This document shows positions 31,215 through 62,068 of a stretch of DNA of 64,000 bases, piece after piece (position 1 is the first letter of the stretch; the number at the start of each line of letters is the position of its first letter). Below the pieces are notes generated by a model, which did no database searches, was not told where the DNA came from, and saw nothing but the letters and a program-made list of their open reading frames with translations. Source of the DNA: Parcubacteria group bacterium Gr01-1014_31 (lineage in GTDB: Bacteria; Patescibacteriota; Patescibacteriia; Buchananbacterales; GWA2-38-13). A program made the position numbers and the translations under genes. The stretch covers positions 142,554 through 206,553 of the forward strand of contig VMFR01000001.1 of NCBI GenBank assembly GCA_007376135.1, written 5' to 3'.

Positions 31215-31820
31215 CTATTCCTGCACGGTGACGGAGCGCAGCACGACGTCTTCCGTCGGTCGGTCATTCGCGTCCGTCGCCACCTTTTCAATGGCCGCAA
31301 CCACGTCCATTCCCTCCACGACCATTCCGAAGTTCGTGTGCTTGCCGTCCAACCAATCGGTCGCCGCCTTGGTCACAATGAAGAACTGACTGCCGTTGGT
31401 ATTCGGGCCGGCGTTCGCCATCGCCAGCGACCCGCGCACTAATTTATGCTCGTTGATCTCATCCTCGAAACGGTAGTCCGGTCCGCCGGTACCCCAGCGC
31501 GATTTGGCGGCCAGATCCTTGCTCAGCGGATCGCCGCCCTGGATCATAAAATCGCTAATGACGCGGTGAAACCGCGTGCCGTCGTAAAAGCCTTCCCGGG
31601 CCAGTTTGACGAAATTGTCGACGGTCTTTGGCGCGTCCGAGCGGTAGAGCTCGACCACGATCGTCCCCTTGCTGGTAACCAATGTTGCACGCATAGTTGT
31701 GGCAATTGGCGTCGGCGTCGGAGTGGGCGTCACCGCCACCCCGCCGGCCGGCAGATTAGAATTTTTTACGCAGCCGGCGATGAGGACGGCCGCAATGAGA
31801 AGAAATGATCGTGGTCGCAT
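31215..31820 (-). CDS. peptidyl-prolyl cis-trans isomerase, cyclophilin type, lipoprotein
   Basis: Lipobox LIAAVLIAGC. Cyclophilin motifs FHRVISDFMIQGGDP and SLAMANAGPNTNGSQFFI. Confidence 0.85.
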   Translation of the reverse strand: MRPRSFLLIAAVLIAGCVKNSNLPAGGVAVTPTPTPTPIATTMRATLVTSKGTIVVELYRSDAPKTVDNFVKLAREGFYDGTRFHRVISDFMIQGGDPLSKDLAAKSRWGTGGPDYRFEDEINEHKLVRGSLAMANAGPNTNGSQFFIVTKAATDWLDGKHTNFGMVVEGMDVVAAIEKVATDANDRPTEDVVLRSVTVQE

Positions 31821-31965
31821 AGTATTCTGTATTAACTATCCCCAAGCCATACACCGTTTCACCCTTGACGGGCCTCACCCTGCCCATCTCGCGTTTTTGA
31901 ACAGTGCAATATTGGGGATAAAGTAATAAACTGCCTTTTCTGACCGTCGATGCACGCGCTTTGTC

Positions 31966-31990
31966 CCGCTCCATCCTGGGGGGAAATCGA
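31966..31990 (-). pseudogene. tRNA-Gln 3'-fragment (T-arm and acceptor remnant)
   Basis: The minus strand reads ATGAAGGTTCGATTTCCCCCC. It matches the 3' part of the adjacent tRNA-Gln but carries a 3-nt deletion. Confidence 0.4.
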
Positions 31991-32007
31991 ACCTTCATAC
32001 TGGGCTC

Positions 32008-32103
32008 TCCCACACATTGCTGGGGGGGAAGGAATCGAACCTTCATTCGCAGCTCCAAAGGCTGCTGTCCTGCCATTAGACGACCCCCCAGCAATGTGTG
32101 GGA
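32008..32103 (-). repeat. 13-bp perfect inverted repeat (CCCACACATTGC.. / ..GCAATGTGTGGG) immediately flanking tRNA-Gln
   Basis: 32008-32020 is the exact reverse complement of 32091-32103; the two arms abut the tRNA ends. Confidence 0.7.
32020..32090 (-). tRNA. tRNA-Gln (anticodon UUG)
   Basis: Minus strand: TGGGGGG acceptor, D-arm, anticodon stem GCAGC/GCTGC with loop CTTTGGA, T-arm GAAGG-TTCGATT-CCTTC, CCCCCCA acceptor, discriminator G; CCA not encoded. Confidence 0.7.
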
Positions 32104-32199
32104 CCTTGCCCGACTCCGCGCCTGCCCCGTCGTATGACGGGGCCCTGTTTTACCCCACACCTTTCGACCTTAAATAGCAGAGCTACTTTGCTTGCCTAC

Positions 32200-32270
32200 C
32201 CGCGGGAGCAGAACTCGAATCTGGATTCACGGCTCCAAAGGCTGCTGTCCTGCCCTTAGACGATCCCGTA
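32200..32270 (-). pseudogene. degenerate tRNA-Gln(UUG) copy
   Basis: D-arm and anticodon arm are near-identical to tRNA-Gln. The acceptor, anticodon and T stems each carry one mismatch. No flanking inverted repeat. Confidence 0.4.
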
Positions 32271-32359
32271 GTTATGGAAGCGATAGTACTAAAGGTCAAA
32301 AGGTGTGGAGCGAGGACGACCCCCCCCAGGACGGGACGCAACGTCCACCGGTACCGGCA

Positions 32360-32587
32360 TCAACTGAACCGCACCGCGTTATAGATCTTCCTGGCAGCAA
32401 AGTACATGACGAAGGCGAAAAAGACTCCCAGATACCCGAAGGTGCCGACCTTGAGCGGCAGCGAAATGTGTTGGCCGACGATGAAGTTGACGACTTCAAG
32501 CACTAAGAGCACGCCCATCAGGATCATCACGATGAAGATGAGCATGACCACGGTCAGAATGGTTTCCAAAAGCCGGCCGGCGTGCAT
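32360..32587 (-). CDS. hypothetical small membrane protein (75 aa, two TM helices)
   Basis: Hydrophobic ORF in the gap between the tRNA locus and ftsX; no recognisable family. Confidence 0.3.
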   Translation of the reverse strand: MHAGRLLETILTVVMLIFIVMILMGVLLVLEVVNFIVGQHISLPLKVGTFGYLGVFFAFVMYFAARKIYNAVRFS

Positions 32588-32637
32588 AGGTACGAAGTGG
32601 TAGCGTAGCGGGCGGGGGGCGAAACGTCAATCCCGCC

Positions 32638-33561
32638 TCAAACTTTCAGGTAACGGCGCACGGCGAACACCGATCCCACCATATTTAGCGCCGACATTCC
32701 CAGCAGTTGCGAACCGAAGATGGCCACAAAGTTCTCGCGGAAATAGCCAGCCAGATCGAGCGGTACGCCGGTAAAGAAATCCTGAAGATACGGCTGCACC
32801 GCATTCAGCAACGGGAATGTGACCGCCACAGCGAGTCCGGTCGCGCACAGCGCGTACAGCACGCCCTCCAGCACGAACGGCGCGGTGATGAACGCGTTGG
32901 ACGCGCCGACCAGCTTCATAATGCCGATCTCGTCGCGGTGCGTATAGATCGCGACGCGGATGGTGTTGAACACGATCAGCGTGGCGATCAGGACGAACAG
33001 CGCCGATATCGCGATCCCCGCCTGGTTAATGCGGTCGGCGATCAGTCGGATCTCGTTGATCGTACGCTGGTGGTCCTTATAGTTCTCGTCGCTGACCAGA
33101 TCGCGGTACGGCGAATGGTTGAGCACCTGGATGATCTCCGGGTAGTCCGAGGGGTGTTGTGCGGTCACCACCAGCGTCGCTCCCAGCGGGTTGTCGCCCA
33201 GCTCCTCCAGAGTCTCCAGGATGGCAGCGTCACGGGCGTGCCGCTGGCGGAATTCTTTCATCGCATCGTCGGCGGTCACGAGCGTGATGGCGGTCACCTG
33301 TGAAAGCTTGCCCAAGTAGTCCTGCACCTCTTTGACCTTCGGCGTGTCCACCACCGGGTCAAAGTAAATGCTGACGTCGATCTTTTGCTCGAGGGAGGTA
33401 ACGGCGGAATCGGCGACGACATTGAGCGCCAGCAGCGCATTGACCGTCAACGACGCCAGCGCGATGATGCTGACGGTCACCAGCGACAGCCAGAAATTGC
33501 GCCAGAACCCTTGCCAGGCGAATTTAATGACGCGGTAGATGGTCACGAGCATATGCTTCAA
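32638..33561 (-). CDS. ftsX: cell division permease FtsX
   Basis: Four TM helices, a periplasmic domain and the FtsX C-terminal motif. Its start overlaps the ftsE stop. Confidence 0.85.
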   Translation of the reverse strand: MKHMLVTIYRVIKFAWQGFWRNFWLSLVTVSIIALASLTVNALLALNVVADSAVTSLEQKIDVSIYFDPVVDTPKVKEVQDYLGKLSQVTAITLVTADDAMKEFRQRHARDAAILETLEELGDNPLGATLVVTAQHPSDYPEIIQVLNHSPYRDLVSDENYKDHQRTINEIRLIADRINQAGIAISALFVLIATLIVFNTIRVAIYTHRDEIGIMKLVGASNAFITAPFVLEGVLYALCATGLAVAVTFPLLNAVQPYLQDFFTGVPLDLAGYFRENFVAIFGSQLLGMSALNMVGSVFAVRRYLKV

Positions 33562-34244
33562 CTCAACCGATAGCGCCCAACCGCCTCATCGGAGGTCAGT
33601 GTGCCCTGATCAAGTACCAGCACACGGCGCCGGATCTGATTAACCCTCCCCTCGTCATGGCTGACAAACAGCACGGTCGTACCGATCTGGTTGATCTTCA
33701 GCAATAACTCGATGATCTCTTGCGAGGTGGCCGTATCCAGGTTGCCGGTCGGCTCATCCGCCACCAGGATCTTGGGACCGTGGGCGAGCGCCCGTGCGAT
33801 CGCGACGCGCTGCTGCTCGCCGCCGGAAAGGTGGCGCGGGAAACGGTCGTGCTTATCGGCCAACCCGACGATCTTGAGCACCTCGGGGACGATCTTGCGG
33901 ATACGCGAGGGGCGCGCTCCGATCACCTGCATCGCGAATGCGACATTCTCAAAAACGGTCTTCTTTTGCAATAATTTGTAATCCTGGAAAACGACACCGA
34001 TCTGCCGCCGAAGGTAAGGCACTTCACGAGACCGGATGTGCGTAATGTCCCAACCGCCGACGACCACCTGCCCTTCGCTCGCCCGCTCTTCGGCGGTCAG
34101 GATCTTGACCAGCGTGGTTTTTCCGGTGCCGCTCTTGCCAACGATCGAGATGAATTCACCCGCCAAAACCTCGAAAGAAACGTTGGCCAAAGCGACCGTG
34201 CGCTCAGGGAAATAGATTTTGGATACGTTGCGGAAGATGATCAT
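33558..34244 (-). CDS. ftsE: cell division ATP-binding protein FtsE
   Basis: ABC ATPase: [37 protein letters not shown]. Confidence 0.9.
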
Positions 34245-34266
34245 GGGTTTTGAGGAACGCGCACGG

Positions 34267-34296
34267 CTTGAAATTTCTACCCCAGCGTGCGTATAC
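34267..34296 (+). promoter_or_regulatory. sigma70 promoter TTGAAA-18-TATACT for the tRNA Gly/Thr cluster
   Basis: -35 TTGAAA (34267-34272) and -10 TATACT (34291-34296); a second TATACT follows 2 nt later. Confidence 0.5.
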
Positions 34297-34357
34297 TGGT
34301 ATACTGCTGTCCCAACGGCATCGGGTCAAGGGATAAGTCTATTCCCGGCCGCCACGC

Positions 34358-34395
34358 GCGGGATTAGTACCATGGTAGTACGTCGGCTTCCCTCG
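34358..34395 (+). pseudogene. tRNA-Gly-like 5' half (acceptor, D-arm, anticodon stem-loop start)
   Basis: GCGGGATTAGTACCATGGTAGTACGTCGGCTTCCC parallels the intact tRNA-Gly 5' half and then loses similarity. Confidence 0.4.
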
Positions 34396-34511
34396 CCCCT
34401 CACCTTTACGATTGGCTCTCTGCGGGTGTAGTACAGTGGTAGTATGCTAGCTTCCCAAGCTAGAGATGGGAGTTCGATTCTCCTCACCCGCTCCAGGTAA
34501 AGGTGTGGGGG
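34396..34511 (+). repeat. imperfect 14-bp inverted repeat (CCCCTCACCTTTAC / GTAAAGGTGTGGGGG) enclosing tRNA-Gly
   Basis: 34396-34409 against the reverse complement of 34497-34511, one mismatch. The repeat brackets the intact tRNA-Gly. Confidence 0.6.
34423..34495 (+). tRNA. tRNA-Gly (anticodon CCC)
   Basis: GCGGGTG acceptor, anticodon stem CTAGC/GCTAG with loop TTCCCAA, T-arm GGGAG-TTCGATT-CTCCT, discriminator U, CCA encoded. Confidence 0.8.
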
Positions 34512-34522
34512 CAAGCAAAAGA

Positions 34523-34548
34523 CGCGAGTTCGATTCTCGTATCCCGCT
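34523..34548 (+). pseudogene. tRNA 3' half (T-arm plus acceptor 3' strand ATCCCGC) complementary to the upstream 5' half
   Basis: GCGAG-TTCGATT-CTCGT-ATCCCGC-T; the acceptor strand is the exact complement of GCGGGAT at 34358. Confidence 0.4.
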
Positions 34549-34599
34549 CGCTGCCGCGGTTCGGCAGGATATTCGCGCGGTTGCCTTAGGCCGAAGTAC

Positions 34600-34703
34600 T
34601 TTCACATCTTGCCTTGCCGGAGTAGCTCAGCCGGTAGAGCAGTGCTTTCGTAAAGCAAAGGTCGAGGGTTCGAGTCCCTCCTCCGGCTTGGCAAGATGTG
34701 AAA
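34600..34703 (+). repeat. perfect 14-bp inverted repeat (TTTCACATCTTGCC / GGCAAGATGTGAAA) enclosing tRNA-Thr
   Basis: 34600-34613 is the exact reverse complement of 34690-34703. The arms lie 2 nt and 1 nt from the tRNA ends. Confidence 0.7.
34616..34688 (+). tRNA. tRNA-Thr (anticodon CGU)
   Basis: GCCGGAG acceptor, D-arm GCTC/GAGC, anticodon stem GTGCT/AGCAA with loop TTCGTAA, T-arm GAGGG-TTCGAGT-CCCTC, CTCCGGC acceptor, discriminator U. Confidence 0.75.
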
Positions 34704-34884
34704 GATGCCGATCATTGTGGGTTTCCCGCCGTTCTCCTCTTTCGGTTATTGAAATATAGGGAGGAGGGACCCCGCCGACGGCGGTGGCGACTCCCACCTT
34801 CGGCTCCAGACAACTCCGTAAATAGGAAAGATCGGCGCCCGCAGCAGCCGATTTTTCATATCCGCTGCCCTCCGGAAACTGGAA

Positions 34885-36105
34885 CTACGGCGCGTACCGG
34901 TGGATGTTCATGCTGCGCAGGATCTCCCCCAGCCGTTGTTCAAAATAGTCGACCGGGGTCACGGTGATCACGCGTAGCCGCAGCCGCAGGTCGCTCCCCT
35001 CCCCGACCGATTCCTCGCGCAACAGCAGCACATACCCTTGGGCGGTGCGCATCGGCGGCGATACCTCCCCGTCCGAAATCTTTTCCGCCGCGGCAAAGAT
35101 CTGAACATCAAGGTCGTCGCGGCCGCGATACCCCAAATCTCCGCCAATTGCACGGCTATCATCGCGATTCACCTCGCTCGCGGTCGCCGCGAAACTGCTG
35201 GCGCCCTCCGCGAGCGACTGATGGATGGATTTGAGCCGTACGGCGGCCGCTTCCCAGGCCTGCGGGTCTTCCCAGAGCTTGGCGCGGACCGCGAGCTCCA
35301 GCAGGTAGGGCCTTACCAAGCGCTCGGAAAAATCATCCAACGACCAACCATAAAAATTCTCCCGCACGCTCTGCTCAAGCCGCTCCCTCGATCCGCTCTG
35401 CGCGATCAACTGCTGCAACTGCGCGTTCACGGCGGCTGCACCGACCTGCACCTGGTACTGTTCGGCCAGGCGGTCGATCGCCGCCTGCCCGACGAAACGA
35501 GTAAATGCCTGCCGCCGCAGTTCACCGTCGCCTTGCGGTCTGCCGGTCCGCACCGATGACCGCCGCAGCATTTCCACGTCGCGCAAATAATCATCCAGCC
35601 AGTATACCCGACCGTCGGCGTCCACGGCGGGGAGCGGCAGGACCCTCGCCAGCGCCGCCACGGCCCAGTTGCTCCAGCCGAATCGGTACGCGCCGACCAG
35701 AACTACGGCGAACAACATGGTTACGAGCGCAGCAAAAATCGACACGGCCAAAAGAGGAGTCCGCCGCCGTCTCTTGGCGGTTTGTGCCGGCCGCCGCGGC
35801 GGTCGGGTCGCTCTCCTTGCTCTTCCCGGCGGCAGCGCCAAAGGAAGCCTCGGGATGATCAACTTCAGCGCACGTGGAACCGACTTTTGCGGCGGAGCGG
35901 CCGCAGCCGCTGCGGTGGTAGTCGTTTTCTTTTTTGGACGCGTCGGGCGCTTGGGTACGCTCGCCTTGACCGCCGACGGCGCGGGCTTGCCGGCAACGAT
36001 CTTGGGGCGTTGCCGGTCCCGCTCGATCCACGCCAGCACCTCACGCCGCATCGCCGACAGTTCGTTTTCGGAAAATGTTTTTCCGTTCGAGGATAGATCG
36101 GGCAT
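34885..36105 (-). CDS. membrane-anchored PpiC/parvulin-type peptidyl-prolyl isomerase (PrsA/SurA-like)
   Basis: Basic, P/A-rich N-terminus, one TM (LLAVSIFAALVTMLFAVVLVGAY), and the parvulin signature GGDLGYRGRDDLDVQIFAAAEKISDGEVSPPMRTAQGYVLLL. Confidence 0.55.
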   Translation of the reverse strand: MPDLSSNGKTFSENELSAMRREVLAWIERDRQRPKIVAGKPAPSAVKASVPKRPTRPKKKTTTTAAAAAAPPQKSVPRALKLIIPRLPLALPPGRARRATRPPRRPAQTAKRRRRTPLLAVSIFAALVTMLFAVVLVGAYRFGWSNWAVAALARVLPLPAVDADGRVYWLDDYLRDVEMLRRSSVRTGRPQGDGELRRQAFTRFVGQAAIDRLAEQYQVQVGAAAVNAQLQQLIAQSGSRERLEQSVRENFYGWSLDDFSERLVRPYLLELAVRAKLWEDPQAWEAAAVRLKSIHQSLAEGASSFAATASEVNRDDSRAIGGDLGYRGRDDLDVQIFAAAEKISDGEVSPPMRTAQGYVLLLREESVGEGSDLRLRLRVITVTPVDYFEQRLGEILRSMNIHRYAP

Positions 36106-39266: not shown

Positions 39267-39346
39267 AAATTTCAGCCTTGGGACAACTGCGTCGATTGCA
39301 AATTAGGCGAAAATATGCTATGCTCAACGCAATTACGTACCACCGA

Positions 39347-39422
39347 GGGTCCATAGCTCAGTTGGTAGAGCAGCTCCCTTTTAAGGAGACGGTCGCAGGT
39401 TCGATCCCTGCTGGACCCACCA
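39347..39422 (+). tRNA. tRNA-Lys (anticodon UUU)
   Basis: GGGTCCA acceptor, anticodon stem GCTCC/GGAGA with loop CTTTTAA, T-arm GCAGG-TTCGATC-CCTGC, discriminator A, CCA encoded. Confidence 0.8.
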
Positions 39423-61584: not shown

Positions 61585-61595
61585 TTTTCCGCTGT

Positions 61596-62030
61596 GGATA
61601 GCCAGGCGGTCGCTCCGATACACAATCGGAGAGGAAAGTCCGAACACCCTGGTTGTCAATTGACAATCTGTCGCGGTAGTGGGTAACGCCCACCCGGGCC
61701 GCAGCAATGCGGCTTGAGGACCAGTTCCACAGAGACCATACTAACCCCGAAGGGGTTATCCCGAGCGACGCCCGCAAGGGCGGAGTCGAGGGATCTCCCA
61801 TTCAGGGCAAAACGTGAAAAGTGTGGCGAGGTCATTGGCTACAAGTGGGAATTCCCGGTAGCTGACGGCTACGCTACTCCGCGCCCAGCGATGGGACGCG
61901 CGTGGTAAACTCTACCTGGTGCAATGCCAAGTTTGGTCGGCAGCATGAGGCCGCCAGCAATGACGGTCCCAGAGAGATGATCGCCACCCGCCTTCGGCGG
62001 GGACAGAATTCGGCTTACCGGCTATCTGCA
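61596..62030 (+). ncRNA. rnpB: RNase P RNA (bacterial type A)
   Basis: P4 hallmark GAGGAAAGTCCG, the 3' ACAGAATTCGGCTTA element, P1 pairing GGATAGCCAGG/CCGGCTATC, and GGTAACGCC (P6/P7 region). Confidence 0.8.
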
Positions 62031-62035
62031 GCAAT

Positions 62036-62068
62036 AAAAAACCCCGCCTCAGCGGGATTTTTTATTGC
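62036..62068 (+). terminator. rho-independent terminator after rnpB (extended palindrome)
   Basis: GCAATAAAAAA-CCCGC-CTCA-GCGGG-ATTTTTTATTGC. Confidence 0.65.

Follow-up and report, generated by a model that had tools for sequence, protein, structure and literature searches.

The tRNA-Gln(UUG) gene of Parcubacteria group bacterium Gr01-1014_31, within the 64,000-nt stretch of DNA analyzed here (the window), is enclosed by a perfect 13-bp leader-trailer helix, or clamp, and lies among broken copies of tRNA-Gln genes. We interpret this gene and the arm-flanked tRNA-Gly and tRNA-Thr genes of the window as cassettes, i.e., remnants without an open reading frame (ORF) of an element that invades tRNA genes and carries a clamped replacement tRNA, and the locus as a graveyard of repeated invasion; we put the probability of this reading a little above one half (about 0.55). 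Two findings frame it. Selection acts on the leader-trailer helix: compensatory substitutions maintain its pairing, and at tRNA-Gln and tRNA-Thr its arms are under purifying selection. In Patescibacteria, the ultra-small bacteria of the Candidate Phyla Radiation (CPR), tRNA-Gln genes are occupied by a family of elements, inserted in the anticodon or directly behind it. Coordinates are those of the whole 64,000-nt window, and L001, L002, etc. are labels of related loci used for comparison.

A 13-bp clamp encloses tRNA-Gln

ARAGORN and Rfam identify four tRNAs encoded in the window: Gln, Gly, Thr, and Lys. The functional tRNA-Gln(UUG) occupies 32090..32020 on the minus strand (ARAGORN; Rfam, 62.1 bits) and is identical at 71/71 positions in strains L001 and L065. 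CCA is not encoded; the discriminator G73 at 32020 is followed by CAAUG. The leader arm UCCCACACAUUGC (32091..32103, minus; positions -13 to -1) is 100% complementary to G73 plus the trailer arm CAAUGUGUGGGA (32008..32019, minus), and the resulting 13-bp clamp is supported by complementarity, folding, and covariation, as well as by strain comparison, in which the leader arm shows no substitutions. C(-1):G73 is the first pair, 12 leader/trailer pairs follow, and the outermost, 13th pair is U:A. Taken together with the 7-bp acceptor stem, the 13 pairs amount to 20-nt arms of 100% complementarity (32008-32027 vs 32084-32103). Folded as RNA, the region forms the cloverleaf with a coaxial 13-bp clamp (free energy, -59.5 kcal/mol; z = -6.5), and 0/200 shuffles folded equally well.

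A first-pass annotation of this DNA had described a perfect 13-bp leader-trailer repeat at 32008-32103 that stacks on the acceptor stem. Its coordinates are exact and both of its 12-nt strings are correct, with the outermost U:A as the 13th pair; the stacking is likewise borne out by the paired C(-1):G73 and the coaxial fold.

A chance origin of the helix is ruled out by two results. The best two spaced inverted repeats of the whole 64-kb window are those around tRNA-Thr and tRNA-Gln, and counts of paired leader/trailer positions (maximum 13) over 93 distinct tRNAs of related loci are bimodal, with a background at 0-9 (mode 4) and a second group at 10-13. An assembly artifact is ruled out as well, because five independent assemblies share the layout: L066 is 100% identical, L064, L065, and L067 are ~97% identical, and L001 is ~85-90% identical.

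The clamp is maintained by selection at tRNA-Gln and tRNA-Thr

Covariation was assessed in 12 divergent clamped tRNA-Gln cassettes, from an alignment of the acceptor strands together with 14 nt of leader and 14 nt of trailer. For the 13 leader/trailer pairs, 92% of cells are paired, and double (compensatory) changes occur at 10/13 clamp pairs, a result that 0/500 shuffles and no slid register come near. CCCACAC/GTGTGGG in the window, for example, corresponds to CCCGCAC/GTGCGGG in L036, and TTATCAGCACGGC in L002 to TTGTCAGCACAGC in L040, where the trailers have changed to match. The pairs C-1:G73, C-6:G, and U-13:A are invariant, and pairing ends at 13 bp in most cassettes.

Between the window and L001, the tRNA-Gln arms are identical at 25/25 positions and the tRNA-Thr arms at 29/30, compared with 220/279 (79%) for the pooled neighboring non-functional segments (p ~3e-5, a binomial estimate from the counts). 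The arms of both genes are thus far more conserved than the surrounding DNA and, therefore, under purifying selection. The leader arms are C-rich and G-poor (57 C:G pairs vs 18 G:C), and this bias of the leader strand hints at a strand-specific, hence RNA or single-strand, role. An RNase III-type step on the clamp is feasible, and CPR bacteria are known to retain rnc (PMC12641178). Neither an RNase III signature nor an rnc gene was found among the window ORFs, which is uninformative, as the window is only a 64-kb piece.

The clamp is confined to a subset of tRNA genes. In an unbiased, FtsX-based sample of relatives, it is present in 5 of ~22 tRNA-Gln genes and, outside the window and L001, in 0 of ~50 Gly, Thr, and Lys genes. 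The clamped tRNA-Gln genes among relatives mostly lack an encoded CCA, which is missing from 14/16 clamped vs 16/77 unclamped tRNAs (Fisher p = 8e-7, from a biased sample that is not phylogenetically independent). Where CCA is encoded, as in the old tRNA-Gln of L043 and the window tRNA-Gly, the helix begins beyond it. The first-pass annotation had proposed a systematic pre-tRNA processing-stem architecture: the selected helix holds up, given the covariation and the conservation between strains, whereas the systematic design does not, as the window tRNA-Lys and most tRNAs of relatives lack the helix.

Cassettes lie beside and inside older tRNA genes

Debris of tRNA-Gln genes lies on both sides of the functional gene. 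Directly behind the trailer arm, at about tRNA position 37, begins the decaying 3' half (~positions 37-73) of an earlier UGGGG-type tRNA-Gln (31975..32007, minus; repeat comparison), which is 28/32 identical to the functional copy and 26/33 identical to L001. An adjacent 3' fragment had been noticed before; it is real, and we place it at 32007..31975 on the minus strand. On the other side, the interval between the leader arm and a GC hairpin is a junction segment (GGCGCGGAGU...AAGGU; 32104..32123, minus; sequence comparison) that is similar to the GGCGCGAAGU junction found in the nested L047 and L055 cassettes. Judging from this similarity, the window junction may be a remnant of "hairpin + GAAGC" left once an ORF had been lost. 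The hairpin itself, GCCCCGTCGTATGACGGGGC, lies at 32124..32143 (no strand; fold and hairpin search), where a spacer hairpin had already been reported, and is one of a family of small GC hairpins that share the conserved end GGGCAGGC/GCCTGCCC. Hairpins of this family also occur inside dead tRNA-Gln copies, in the D-loops of L040 (1897-1925) and L041 (1892-1921) and in the T-loop of L036 (8529-8566).

Farther out lies a second cassette, whose payload is dead. A full-length tRNA-Gln pseudogene (32200..32270, minus) scores 28.8 bits in Rfam against a gathering score of 29, and non-standard pairs affect its acceptor, anticodon, and T stems; the mismatched full-length copy that the first-pass annotation listed here is therefore present, with three stems damaged. 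The lesions vary by strain: 2 nt are inserted in L065, and L001 has a 3' deletion. The pseudogene is flanked by 22-nt arms of 86% complementarity, one on the trailer side (32155..32176, minus; CCACACCUUU motif on the complementary strand) and one on the leader side (32287..32308, minus; CCACACCUUUUGACC...), and the two arms together are 43/44 identical to L001. A 15-nt motif of the leader-side arm recurs upstream of the L001 tRNA-Lys. The pseudogene cassette is closely preceded by a 5' fragment (~positions 1-13) of another tRNA-Gln, of the UGGGGGG type (32312..32329, minus; 11/11 match over tRNA positions 2-12). The best reading of the tRNA-Gln locus is a graveyard resulting from repeated invasion of tRNA-Gln genes. 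The first-pass annotation had treated the debris as a side matter; instead, the clamped tRNAs are cassettes nested in or beside older, disrupted tRNA genes.

The nesting is clearest at tRNA-Gly. The functional tRNA-Gly(CCC), with encoded CCA (34422..34495, plus; ARAGORN, Rfam; 74/74 identical in L001), is the payload of a cassette with 14-nt arms of 93% complementarity: the leader arm CCCCTCACCTTTAC (34396..34409, plus; CCCCACACCTTTAC in other strains), followed on the 5' side by a 12-nt spacer, and the trailer arm GTAAAGGTGTGGGG (34497..34510, plus; mutated in L065 and with a 118-nt insert in L001). Around this cassette are the two halves of an ancestral, syntenic tRNA-Gly: a 5' half (positions 1-36; 34358..34392, plus; repeat comparison) that ends in the anticodon CCC and a 3' half (34512..34549, plus) that is 34/37 identical to the tRNA-Gly of L002 and L004 vs 30/37 to the inner copy. 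The outer halves match the syntenic tRNA-Gly of relatives L002, L004, and L023 and pair perfectly at the acceptor (GCGGGAT/ATCCCGC), which differs from the inner gene (GCGGGTG/CACCCGC) in a compensatory manner. When 34393-34512 is deleted in silico, ARAGORN calls a tRNA-Gly(CCC). Since the deletion regenerates a tRNA-Gly and the outer halves match the orthologs, the arm-tRNA-Gly-arm cassette is seated inside the anticodon of the ancestral tRNA-Gly. The halves are no longer intact, as their anticodon stems are broken and differ from strain to strain. Ahead of the outer tRNA-Gly half, at 34268-34297, is a promoter-like site.

Strain comparison shows the tRNA-Gly arms to be in decay, with 17/28 positions identical to L001. 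An AT-rich insertion of 118 nt (L001:6830-6950) breaks the trailer arm in L001 only, and in L065 and L067 this arm carries a 1-nt deletion and a G>A change.

The functional tRNA-Thr(CGU) (34616..34688, plus; ARAGORN, Rfam), which lacks an encoded CCA, is 73/73 identical in L001. Its leader arm CTTTCACATCTTGCC (34599..34613, plus; fold z = -6.8) and trailer arm GGCAAGATGTGAAAG (34690..34704, plus) pair perfectly over 15 nt and are set off from the acceptor stem by a UU/UU loop. The earlier claim that the tRNA-Gln design recurs at tRNA-Thr and tRNA-Gly thus agrees with the arms found there, both sets of which are spaced from the acceptor stem. No old tRNA-Thr halves were found near the Thr cassette, where five tRNA-Thr sequences aligned locally no better than shuffles did (p 0.1-0.96). 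Downstream of this cassette, at 34774/34775, 36 bases (TCACCGCATCCTGCGGGATCCCGCCAGCGGCGGTGA) absent from the window are present in L064, L065, and L067.

The fourth tRNA, tRNA-Lys(UUU) (39347..39422, plus; ARAGORN, arm search), has an encoded CCA and no flanking helix and serves as an internal negative control. Ahead of it, L001 (1916-1960, compared with window 39330-39347) contains a 45-nt insertion, GGGTCCATAGCTC[GGCTTGCCCCACACCTTTTGGACCTCAAAGCC], made up of a 13-nt duplicate of the tRNA 5' end and 32 nt with the CCCCACACCTTTTGGACC motif, as in the leader arm of the tRNA-Gln pseudogene cassette. As the window lacks it, the insertion is either a recent gain or has been precisely lost.

These findings bear on whether the helices could be purely a matter of RNA processing, with long leader-trailer stems released by RNase III and the nearby fragments produced by unrelated local duplication and decay. 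The compensatory changes, the fixed 13-bp length, and the invariant C-1:G73, C-6:G, and U-13:A pairs would be expected of such a design, as would arms as conserved as the tRNAs themselves, their presence at three of four window tRNAs, the helix that clamps the intact, CCA-bearing tRNA-Gln of L043 beyond its CCA, and the retention of rnc in CPR bacteria (PMC12641178). We nevertheless consider this explanation unlikely. The fragments are non-random, as the old halves are broken at the anticodon and lie directly against the arms; the tRNA-Gly arms decay while the tRNA is retained; and the helix is lacking not only from tRNA-Lys but also from all ~50 Gly, Thr, and Lys genes and from 17 of ~22 tRNA-Gln genes in the unbiased sample.

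Related elements carry a GIY-YIG nuclease gene

Nested tRNAs are also present in relatives. L047, found by a pattern search for the leader motif and the tRNA-Gln start, has the order old 5' half, GGCGCGAAGT, CCCGCACAGAGC, tRNA-Gln, CCTTGTGCGGGA, and old 3' half, and contains no ORF. The arms in L036 are the same as in L047, with an old 3' half directly behind the trailer arm. The ORF-less forms (leader arm, tRNA, and trailer arm), therefore, occur in two settings: between old halves in L047 and at the window tRNA-Gly, and directly ahead of an old 3' half in L036 and at the window tRNA-Gln.

Other loci contain a gene. In L002, the old 5' half lies 299 nt upstream of tRNA-Gln, and the interval consists of GC hairpins and a small ORF that matches GIY-YIG (PF01541, E = 1e-14). 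The encoded protein has 481 close homologs, which belong to Patescibacteria groups where the source is named. L002 is the only one of the first 38 loci to contain this nuclease gene. Our element survey comprises nine distinct elements at 19 loci in five gene neighborhoods: behind ftsX, recJ/rnhA, dnaX, a nucleotidyltransferase gene, and a glycosyltransferase gene. In all nine (9/9), the GIY-YIG ORF is 5-65 nt upstream of tRNA-Gln(UUG) and downstream of an old tRNA-Gln 5' half that ends in ...CCUUUU(G) and is followed by twin GC hairpins and GAAGC/GGAGG. The full order is old 5' half, twin GC hairpins, 80-aa GIY-YIG gene, leader arm, complete tRNA-Gln (usually without CCA), and trailer arm; behind the new tRNA, there is often a second copy of "AGCCUUUU, hairpins, GAAGC" and an old 3' half. 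A clear clamp of 10-13 bp is found on the tRNA-Gln of 5/9 elements. When the hairpins and element are removed, the rejoined halves have a single surplus U, and the insertion point is thus located between U35 and G36. Across the five neighborhoods, the insertion is always in tRNA-Gln, at positions 35-37. In L040, the GIY-YIG unit is surrounded by direct repeats of ~45 nt that correspond to the anticodon stem-loop.

L055 ties the window-type cassette to the nuclease elements, as it is nested at three levels: an oldest half; then a decayed CCCGCAC-type leader and tRNA 5' half; and finally the newest element, which interrupts this CCCGCAC-type cassette tRNA with hairpins, a GIY-YIG gene, and a clamped tRNA-Gln. 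Turnover is also seen between strains, in L041 vs L043, at tRNA-Lys in L001 vs the window, and in the pseudogene lesions. A clean pair of empty and filled alleles was not recovered among the loci examined, and L041 and L043 differ in structure. At their shared dnaX locus, L043 (1845-1919) has an intact, clamped, CCA-bearing old tRNA-Gln upstream of its GIY-YIG element, and L041 (1880-1960) has only the 5' half of the old tRNA-Gln, with a hairpin in the D-loop.

The twin hairpins (CGCC-NNN-GGCG, then CNCGCC-NNN-GGCGNG) stand in the old tRNA-Gln anticodon (U35^G36), upstream of the GIY-YIG ORFs, at L002, L039, L040, L041, L054, L055, L058, and L061 and are often repeated behind the new tRNA. Similar hairpin pairs occur in T-loops (L055) and D-loops (L039, L061). 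Their stems covary, and their loops vary.

The GIY-YIG protein is 80 aa long and consists of the catalytic domain only, with the catalytic residues Y6, Y17, R27, and E63 invariant in 17 homologs. Among solved structures, it is closest to bacterial UPF0213 proteins (1zg2, 1ywl) and to SLX1, a structure-specific endonuclease. The proteins are 66-75% identical between genomes whose FtsX are 37-43% identical, which fits either strong constraint or horizontal spread. In L002 (5908-6150), the ORF has one in-frame TGA at an invariant glycine (HNKGD), indicating either a fresh pseudogene or recoding of TGA as glycine. A phage search returned only two weak Staphylococcus phage matches for the protein, and the arm-plus-tRNA pattern had 0 matches in viral contigs; based on this near-absence of the nuclease from phage and the lack of viral matches to the cassette pattern, we reject a phage origin.

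A possible invasion mechanism and its alternatives

Under the interpretation of the cassettes as remnants of a tRNA-gene-invading element, the element would enter a tRNA gene at the anticodon, wreck the resident copy, and bring a working replacement. Because insertion would destroy the resident gene, the element would have to supply a working copy, and it would carry its own tRNA because it has no means of splicing out. The nuclease would presumably start the invasion by cutting tRNA-gene DNA, which is the weakest step of the model. Transcription of the payload would then start from the resident promoter and yield a long RNA in which it is joined to near-identical dead halves and, in some cases, to the nuclease mRNA. 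In such a transcript, the helix could clamp the 5' and 3' ends of the payload and keep its folding independent, while the clamp and acceptor stem together might offer a duplex of ~20 bp to a double-strand-specific nuclease such as RNase III. After duplex cleavage, RNase P, 3' trimming, and CCA addition could complete maturation. The window copies may have lost the nuclease gene or may rely on one elsewhere.

Several observations weigh against this interpretation. The cassettes in the covariation set were picked for having arms, and helix mismatches (eight of the G:U type vs six of the A:C type) do not separate an RNA helix from a DNA helix. At tRNA-Gly, the arms decay between strains while the tRNA is kept, which makes the helix dispensable at this gene. 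Debris is undetectable at some clamped tRNAs, among them the window tRNA-Thr, and 4/9 GIY-YIG elements have no clear clamp (none in L058 and L054, weak in L041/L043). The nuclease gene was found in neither the window nor L001 (tblastn; Pfam); the link to GIY-YIG, therefore, rests on homology of architecture, the junction motif, and L055. Simple homing is also a poor fit: the payload tRNA retains the intact presumed target, which homing leaves unexplained, and the ~45-nt direct repeats around the GIY-YIG unit do not readily follow from it. Finally, the nuclease is a member of the UPF0213/SLX1 clade without a DNA-binding domain and not of the homing-endonuclease clade; the UPF0213/SLX1 minimal clade is separate from the I-TevI/UvrC homing clade (PMC1564403).

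The arms could instead be the terminal inverted repeats of a transposon resembling a miniature inverted-repeat transposable element, which would carry a tRNA incidentally, depend on a transposase encoded elsewhere, and need the helix only as DNA ends. The right cassette boundary coincides with the arm end in four cases, and sequences of this kind are present or absent depending on the strain. Moreover, the window Gln, Gly, and pseudo-Gln arms have in common a motif, CCCRCAC(C/A)TT, that also stands beside tRNA genes in L036 and L001 and has 4/5 of its exact matches in the 64-kb window at tRNA flanks. The same arms (TCCCGCACCTTTTC / GAAAAGGTGCGGGA) surround a 75-nt non-tRNA hairpin with no Rfam family match in L012 (11973-12088); the arm motif, therefore, exists also without a tRNA payload. 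Such a transposon is still an improbable source of the cassettes. Unlike transposase-binding ends, the arm sequences diverge widely with pairing kept, and in the GIY-YIG elements, the arms are internal, since the ORF lies outside them. The C-rich, G-poor leader arms (57 C:G vs 18 G:C) point to strand-specific constraint. No transposase was seen in the window, nor was a target-site duplication, the sole candidate being the 13-nt duplication at the L001 tRNA-Lys.

Part of the arm motif also occurs alone. In metagenome matches L049, L050, L052, and L053, CCCGCAC stands ahead of tRNA-Gln without a complementary trailer, and in L052 and L053, it is 4 nt behind an extended -10 box (TGGTAAAAT). CCCGCAC may be an old leader or discriminator-like sequence to which a trailer arm was matched later. 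As for a promoter role, the window arms differ from L052/L053 in that they have no preceding -10 and abut the tRNA.

Displaced 3' tRNA fragments downstream of intact tRNAs are a hallmark of tRNA-targeting integration, and they are present among the related loci. There, the last 16-21 nt of a tRNA recur with 100% identity at a distance of 50-175 nt downstream from the intact gene, and GC-rich hairpins lie in between (L008:13202-13219, L021:1267-1287, L025:9691-9707, and, for tRNA-Thr, L002:3693-3709). At CPR tRNA genes, such copies represent a second type of small insertion or duplication, attL/attR-like with no element between. Together with the ~45-nt anticodon stem-loop repeats around the L040 GIY-YIG unit, these copies would suit integrase-mediated islands or prophages that have been almost wholly deleted, leaving attL/attR remnants and incidental inverted repeats. 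We regard this as very unlikely for the cassettes, as no integrase was found in the window, the arms covary and are conserved, and the displacement of both old halves around a complete tRNA, at tRNA-Gly and in L047, is not a single-integration product.

Returning to the tRNA-gene-invading element, we tentatively extend the interpretation, at somewhat less than even odds, to an undescribed class of Patescibacteria selfish elements that would serially overwrite tRNA genes in "Russian-doll" fashion. In this extension, the minimal SLX1-like GIY-YIG nuclease would drive insertion at the anticodon, the clamp would act as a self-contained folding and processing signal, and, in this high-GC lineage, the elements would have spread from tRNA-Gln to Gly, Thr, and Lys, replacing the ancestral genes.

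Relation to known systems

The searched literature contained no description of nested replacement tRNAs, clamped bacterial tRNAs, or GIY-YIG genes inside tRNA-Gln. Compared with tRNA-targeting islands and homing-endonuclease genes, the element compensates by means of a whole replacement tRNA gene and has a minimal SLX1-like nuclease. By analogy with the leader-trailer stems of rRNA operons, which are RNase III substrates, a long covarying duplex encloses a stable RNA and could insulate its folding and offer a cleavage site. The window helix differs in that it encloses single tRNAs, measures 13-15 bp, and is directly stacked on the acceptor stem where C-1:G73 is paired; in addition, the clamp is present at a minority of tRNA genes and travels with the cassette, and its cleavage is putative.

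Phage T4 segB is a free-standing GIY-YIG homing endonuclease gene in a tRNA cluster (PMC2330249). As in that system, a GIY-YIG gene is found among or within tRNA genes, and segB-type genes are associated with non-reciprocal spread of the nuclease and neighboring tRNA genes (PMC2330249). Unlike segB, the CPR protein is an 80-aa UPF0213/SLX1-clade catalytic domain without a DNA-binding domain and is cellular rather than phage-borne; its gene is housed in a split tRNA gene, and a complete copy of the same tRNA always comes behind it. Of the traits of a homing-endonuclease element, a nuclease ORF within the insertion is absent from the window and L001 but present in the related elements L002 and L039-L063.

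Islander-type islands also target tRNA genes, often at the anticodon loop, with the damage compensated and a displaced fragment left behind (PMC4383910). In contrast to these, the CPR elements have no integrase, are 0.1-0.45 kb long, and bring a whole new clamped tRNA rather than a replacement 3' segment, and both old halves can stay. A tyrosine-integrase island was thus rejected, based on the lack of an integrase and the displacement of both tRNA-Gly halves around a complete tRNA. Archaeal tRNA introns and split tRNAs share a break at or next to the anticodon, GC-rich complementary flanks, and evidence of mobile DNA (PMC3293823, PMC4390854). However, the helix here is perfect, without the two 3-nt bulges around a 4-bp helix that define a bulge-helix-bulge, and the outer halves are decaying pieces rather than exons; furthermore, the helix encloses an inner complete tRNA, and the RNase P RNA of the host, a bacterium, is of type A. 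A bulge-helix-bulge intron or split tRNA was rejected because of the perfect helix and the broken outer halves.

Within the same phylum, CPR rRNA genes carry insertion sequences, some of which encode LAGLIDADG or GIY-YIG proteins, and those bearing GIY-YIG are not intron-like (PMC11270868). These resemble the cassettes in that stable-RNA genes are invaded by small elements, sometimes with nuclease genes (PMC11270868). Group I introns are known in bacterial tRNA genes (PMC3984707). Unlike either of these, the elements have no Rfam ribozyme, and the host gene is replaced by a second copy instead of being restored by splicing. Group I introns have also reportedly been found in Patescibacteria tRNA genes, going by the title of a preprint (10.1101/2025.07.03.662931). 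We rejected a group I intron here because there is no Rfam ribozyme core and the inserts are too short; no Rfam intron or ribozyme was detected in window 31500-35200 or in L040 1800-2500 (E <= 1-10).

If the interpretation is correct, essential single-copy tRNA genes of reduced genomes would be turned over by selfish DNA and not merely inherited, with consequences for tRNA-based phylogeny, for CPR tRNA annotation (half-tRNAs and pseudogenes), and for views on the origin of split and intron-containing tRNAs. The widespread minimal UPF0213/SLX1-like GIY-YIG nucleases would also acquire a biological context for the first time, as well as a substrate that can be tested. The 13-bp extension of the acceptor stem challenges the usual RNase P and 3'-processing pathway, making it a natural system in which to study tRNA maturation in CPR bacteria.

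Genomic context and additional observations

The neighboring genes in the window are ordinary chromosomal ones, including rpsI, rplM, rplQ, rpoA, rpsD, alaS, mnmA, and clpB, as well as secDF, a cyclophilin gene, ftsEX, dnaB, recR, tgt, and recJ, and Pfam scans detected no integrase or transposase among the window proteins. The relatives of its FtsX are Patescibacteria, near Candidatus Uhrbacteria, and the order tRNA-Gly, tRNA-Thr / ftsE ftsX / tRNA-Gln is conserved in this Uhrbacteria-near clade. A bacterial type A RNase P RNA is encoded at 61594-62033 (Rfam, 145 bits), and immediately behind it is a 17-bp terminator hairpin (62031-62068).

The GC content of the window is ~60%, and the GC-style tags in the names of several related assemblies are lower (38, 41, 45, and 46). 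The acceptor stems of the replacement tRNAs are very GC-rich (UGGGGGG/CCCCCCA).

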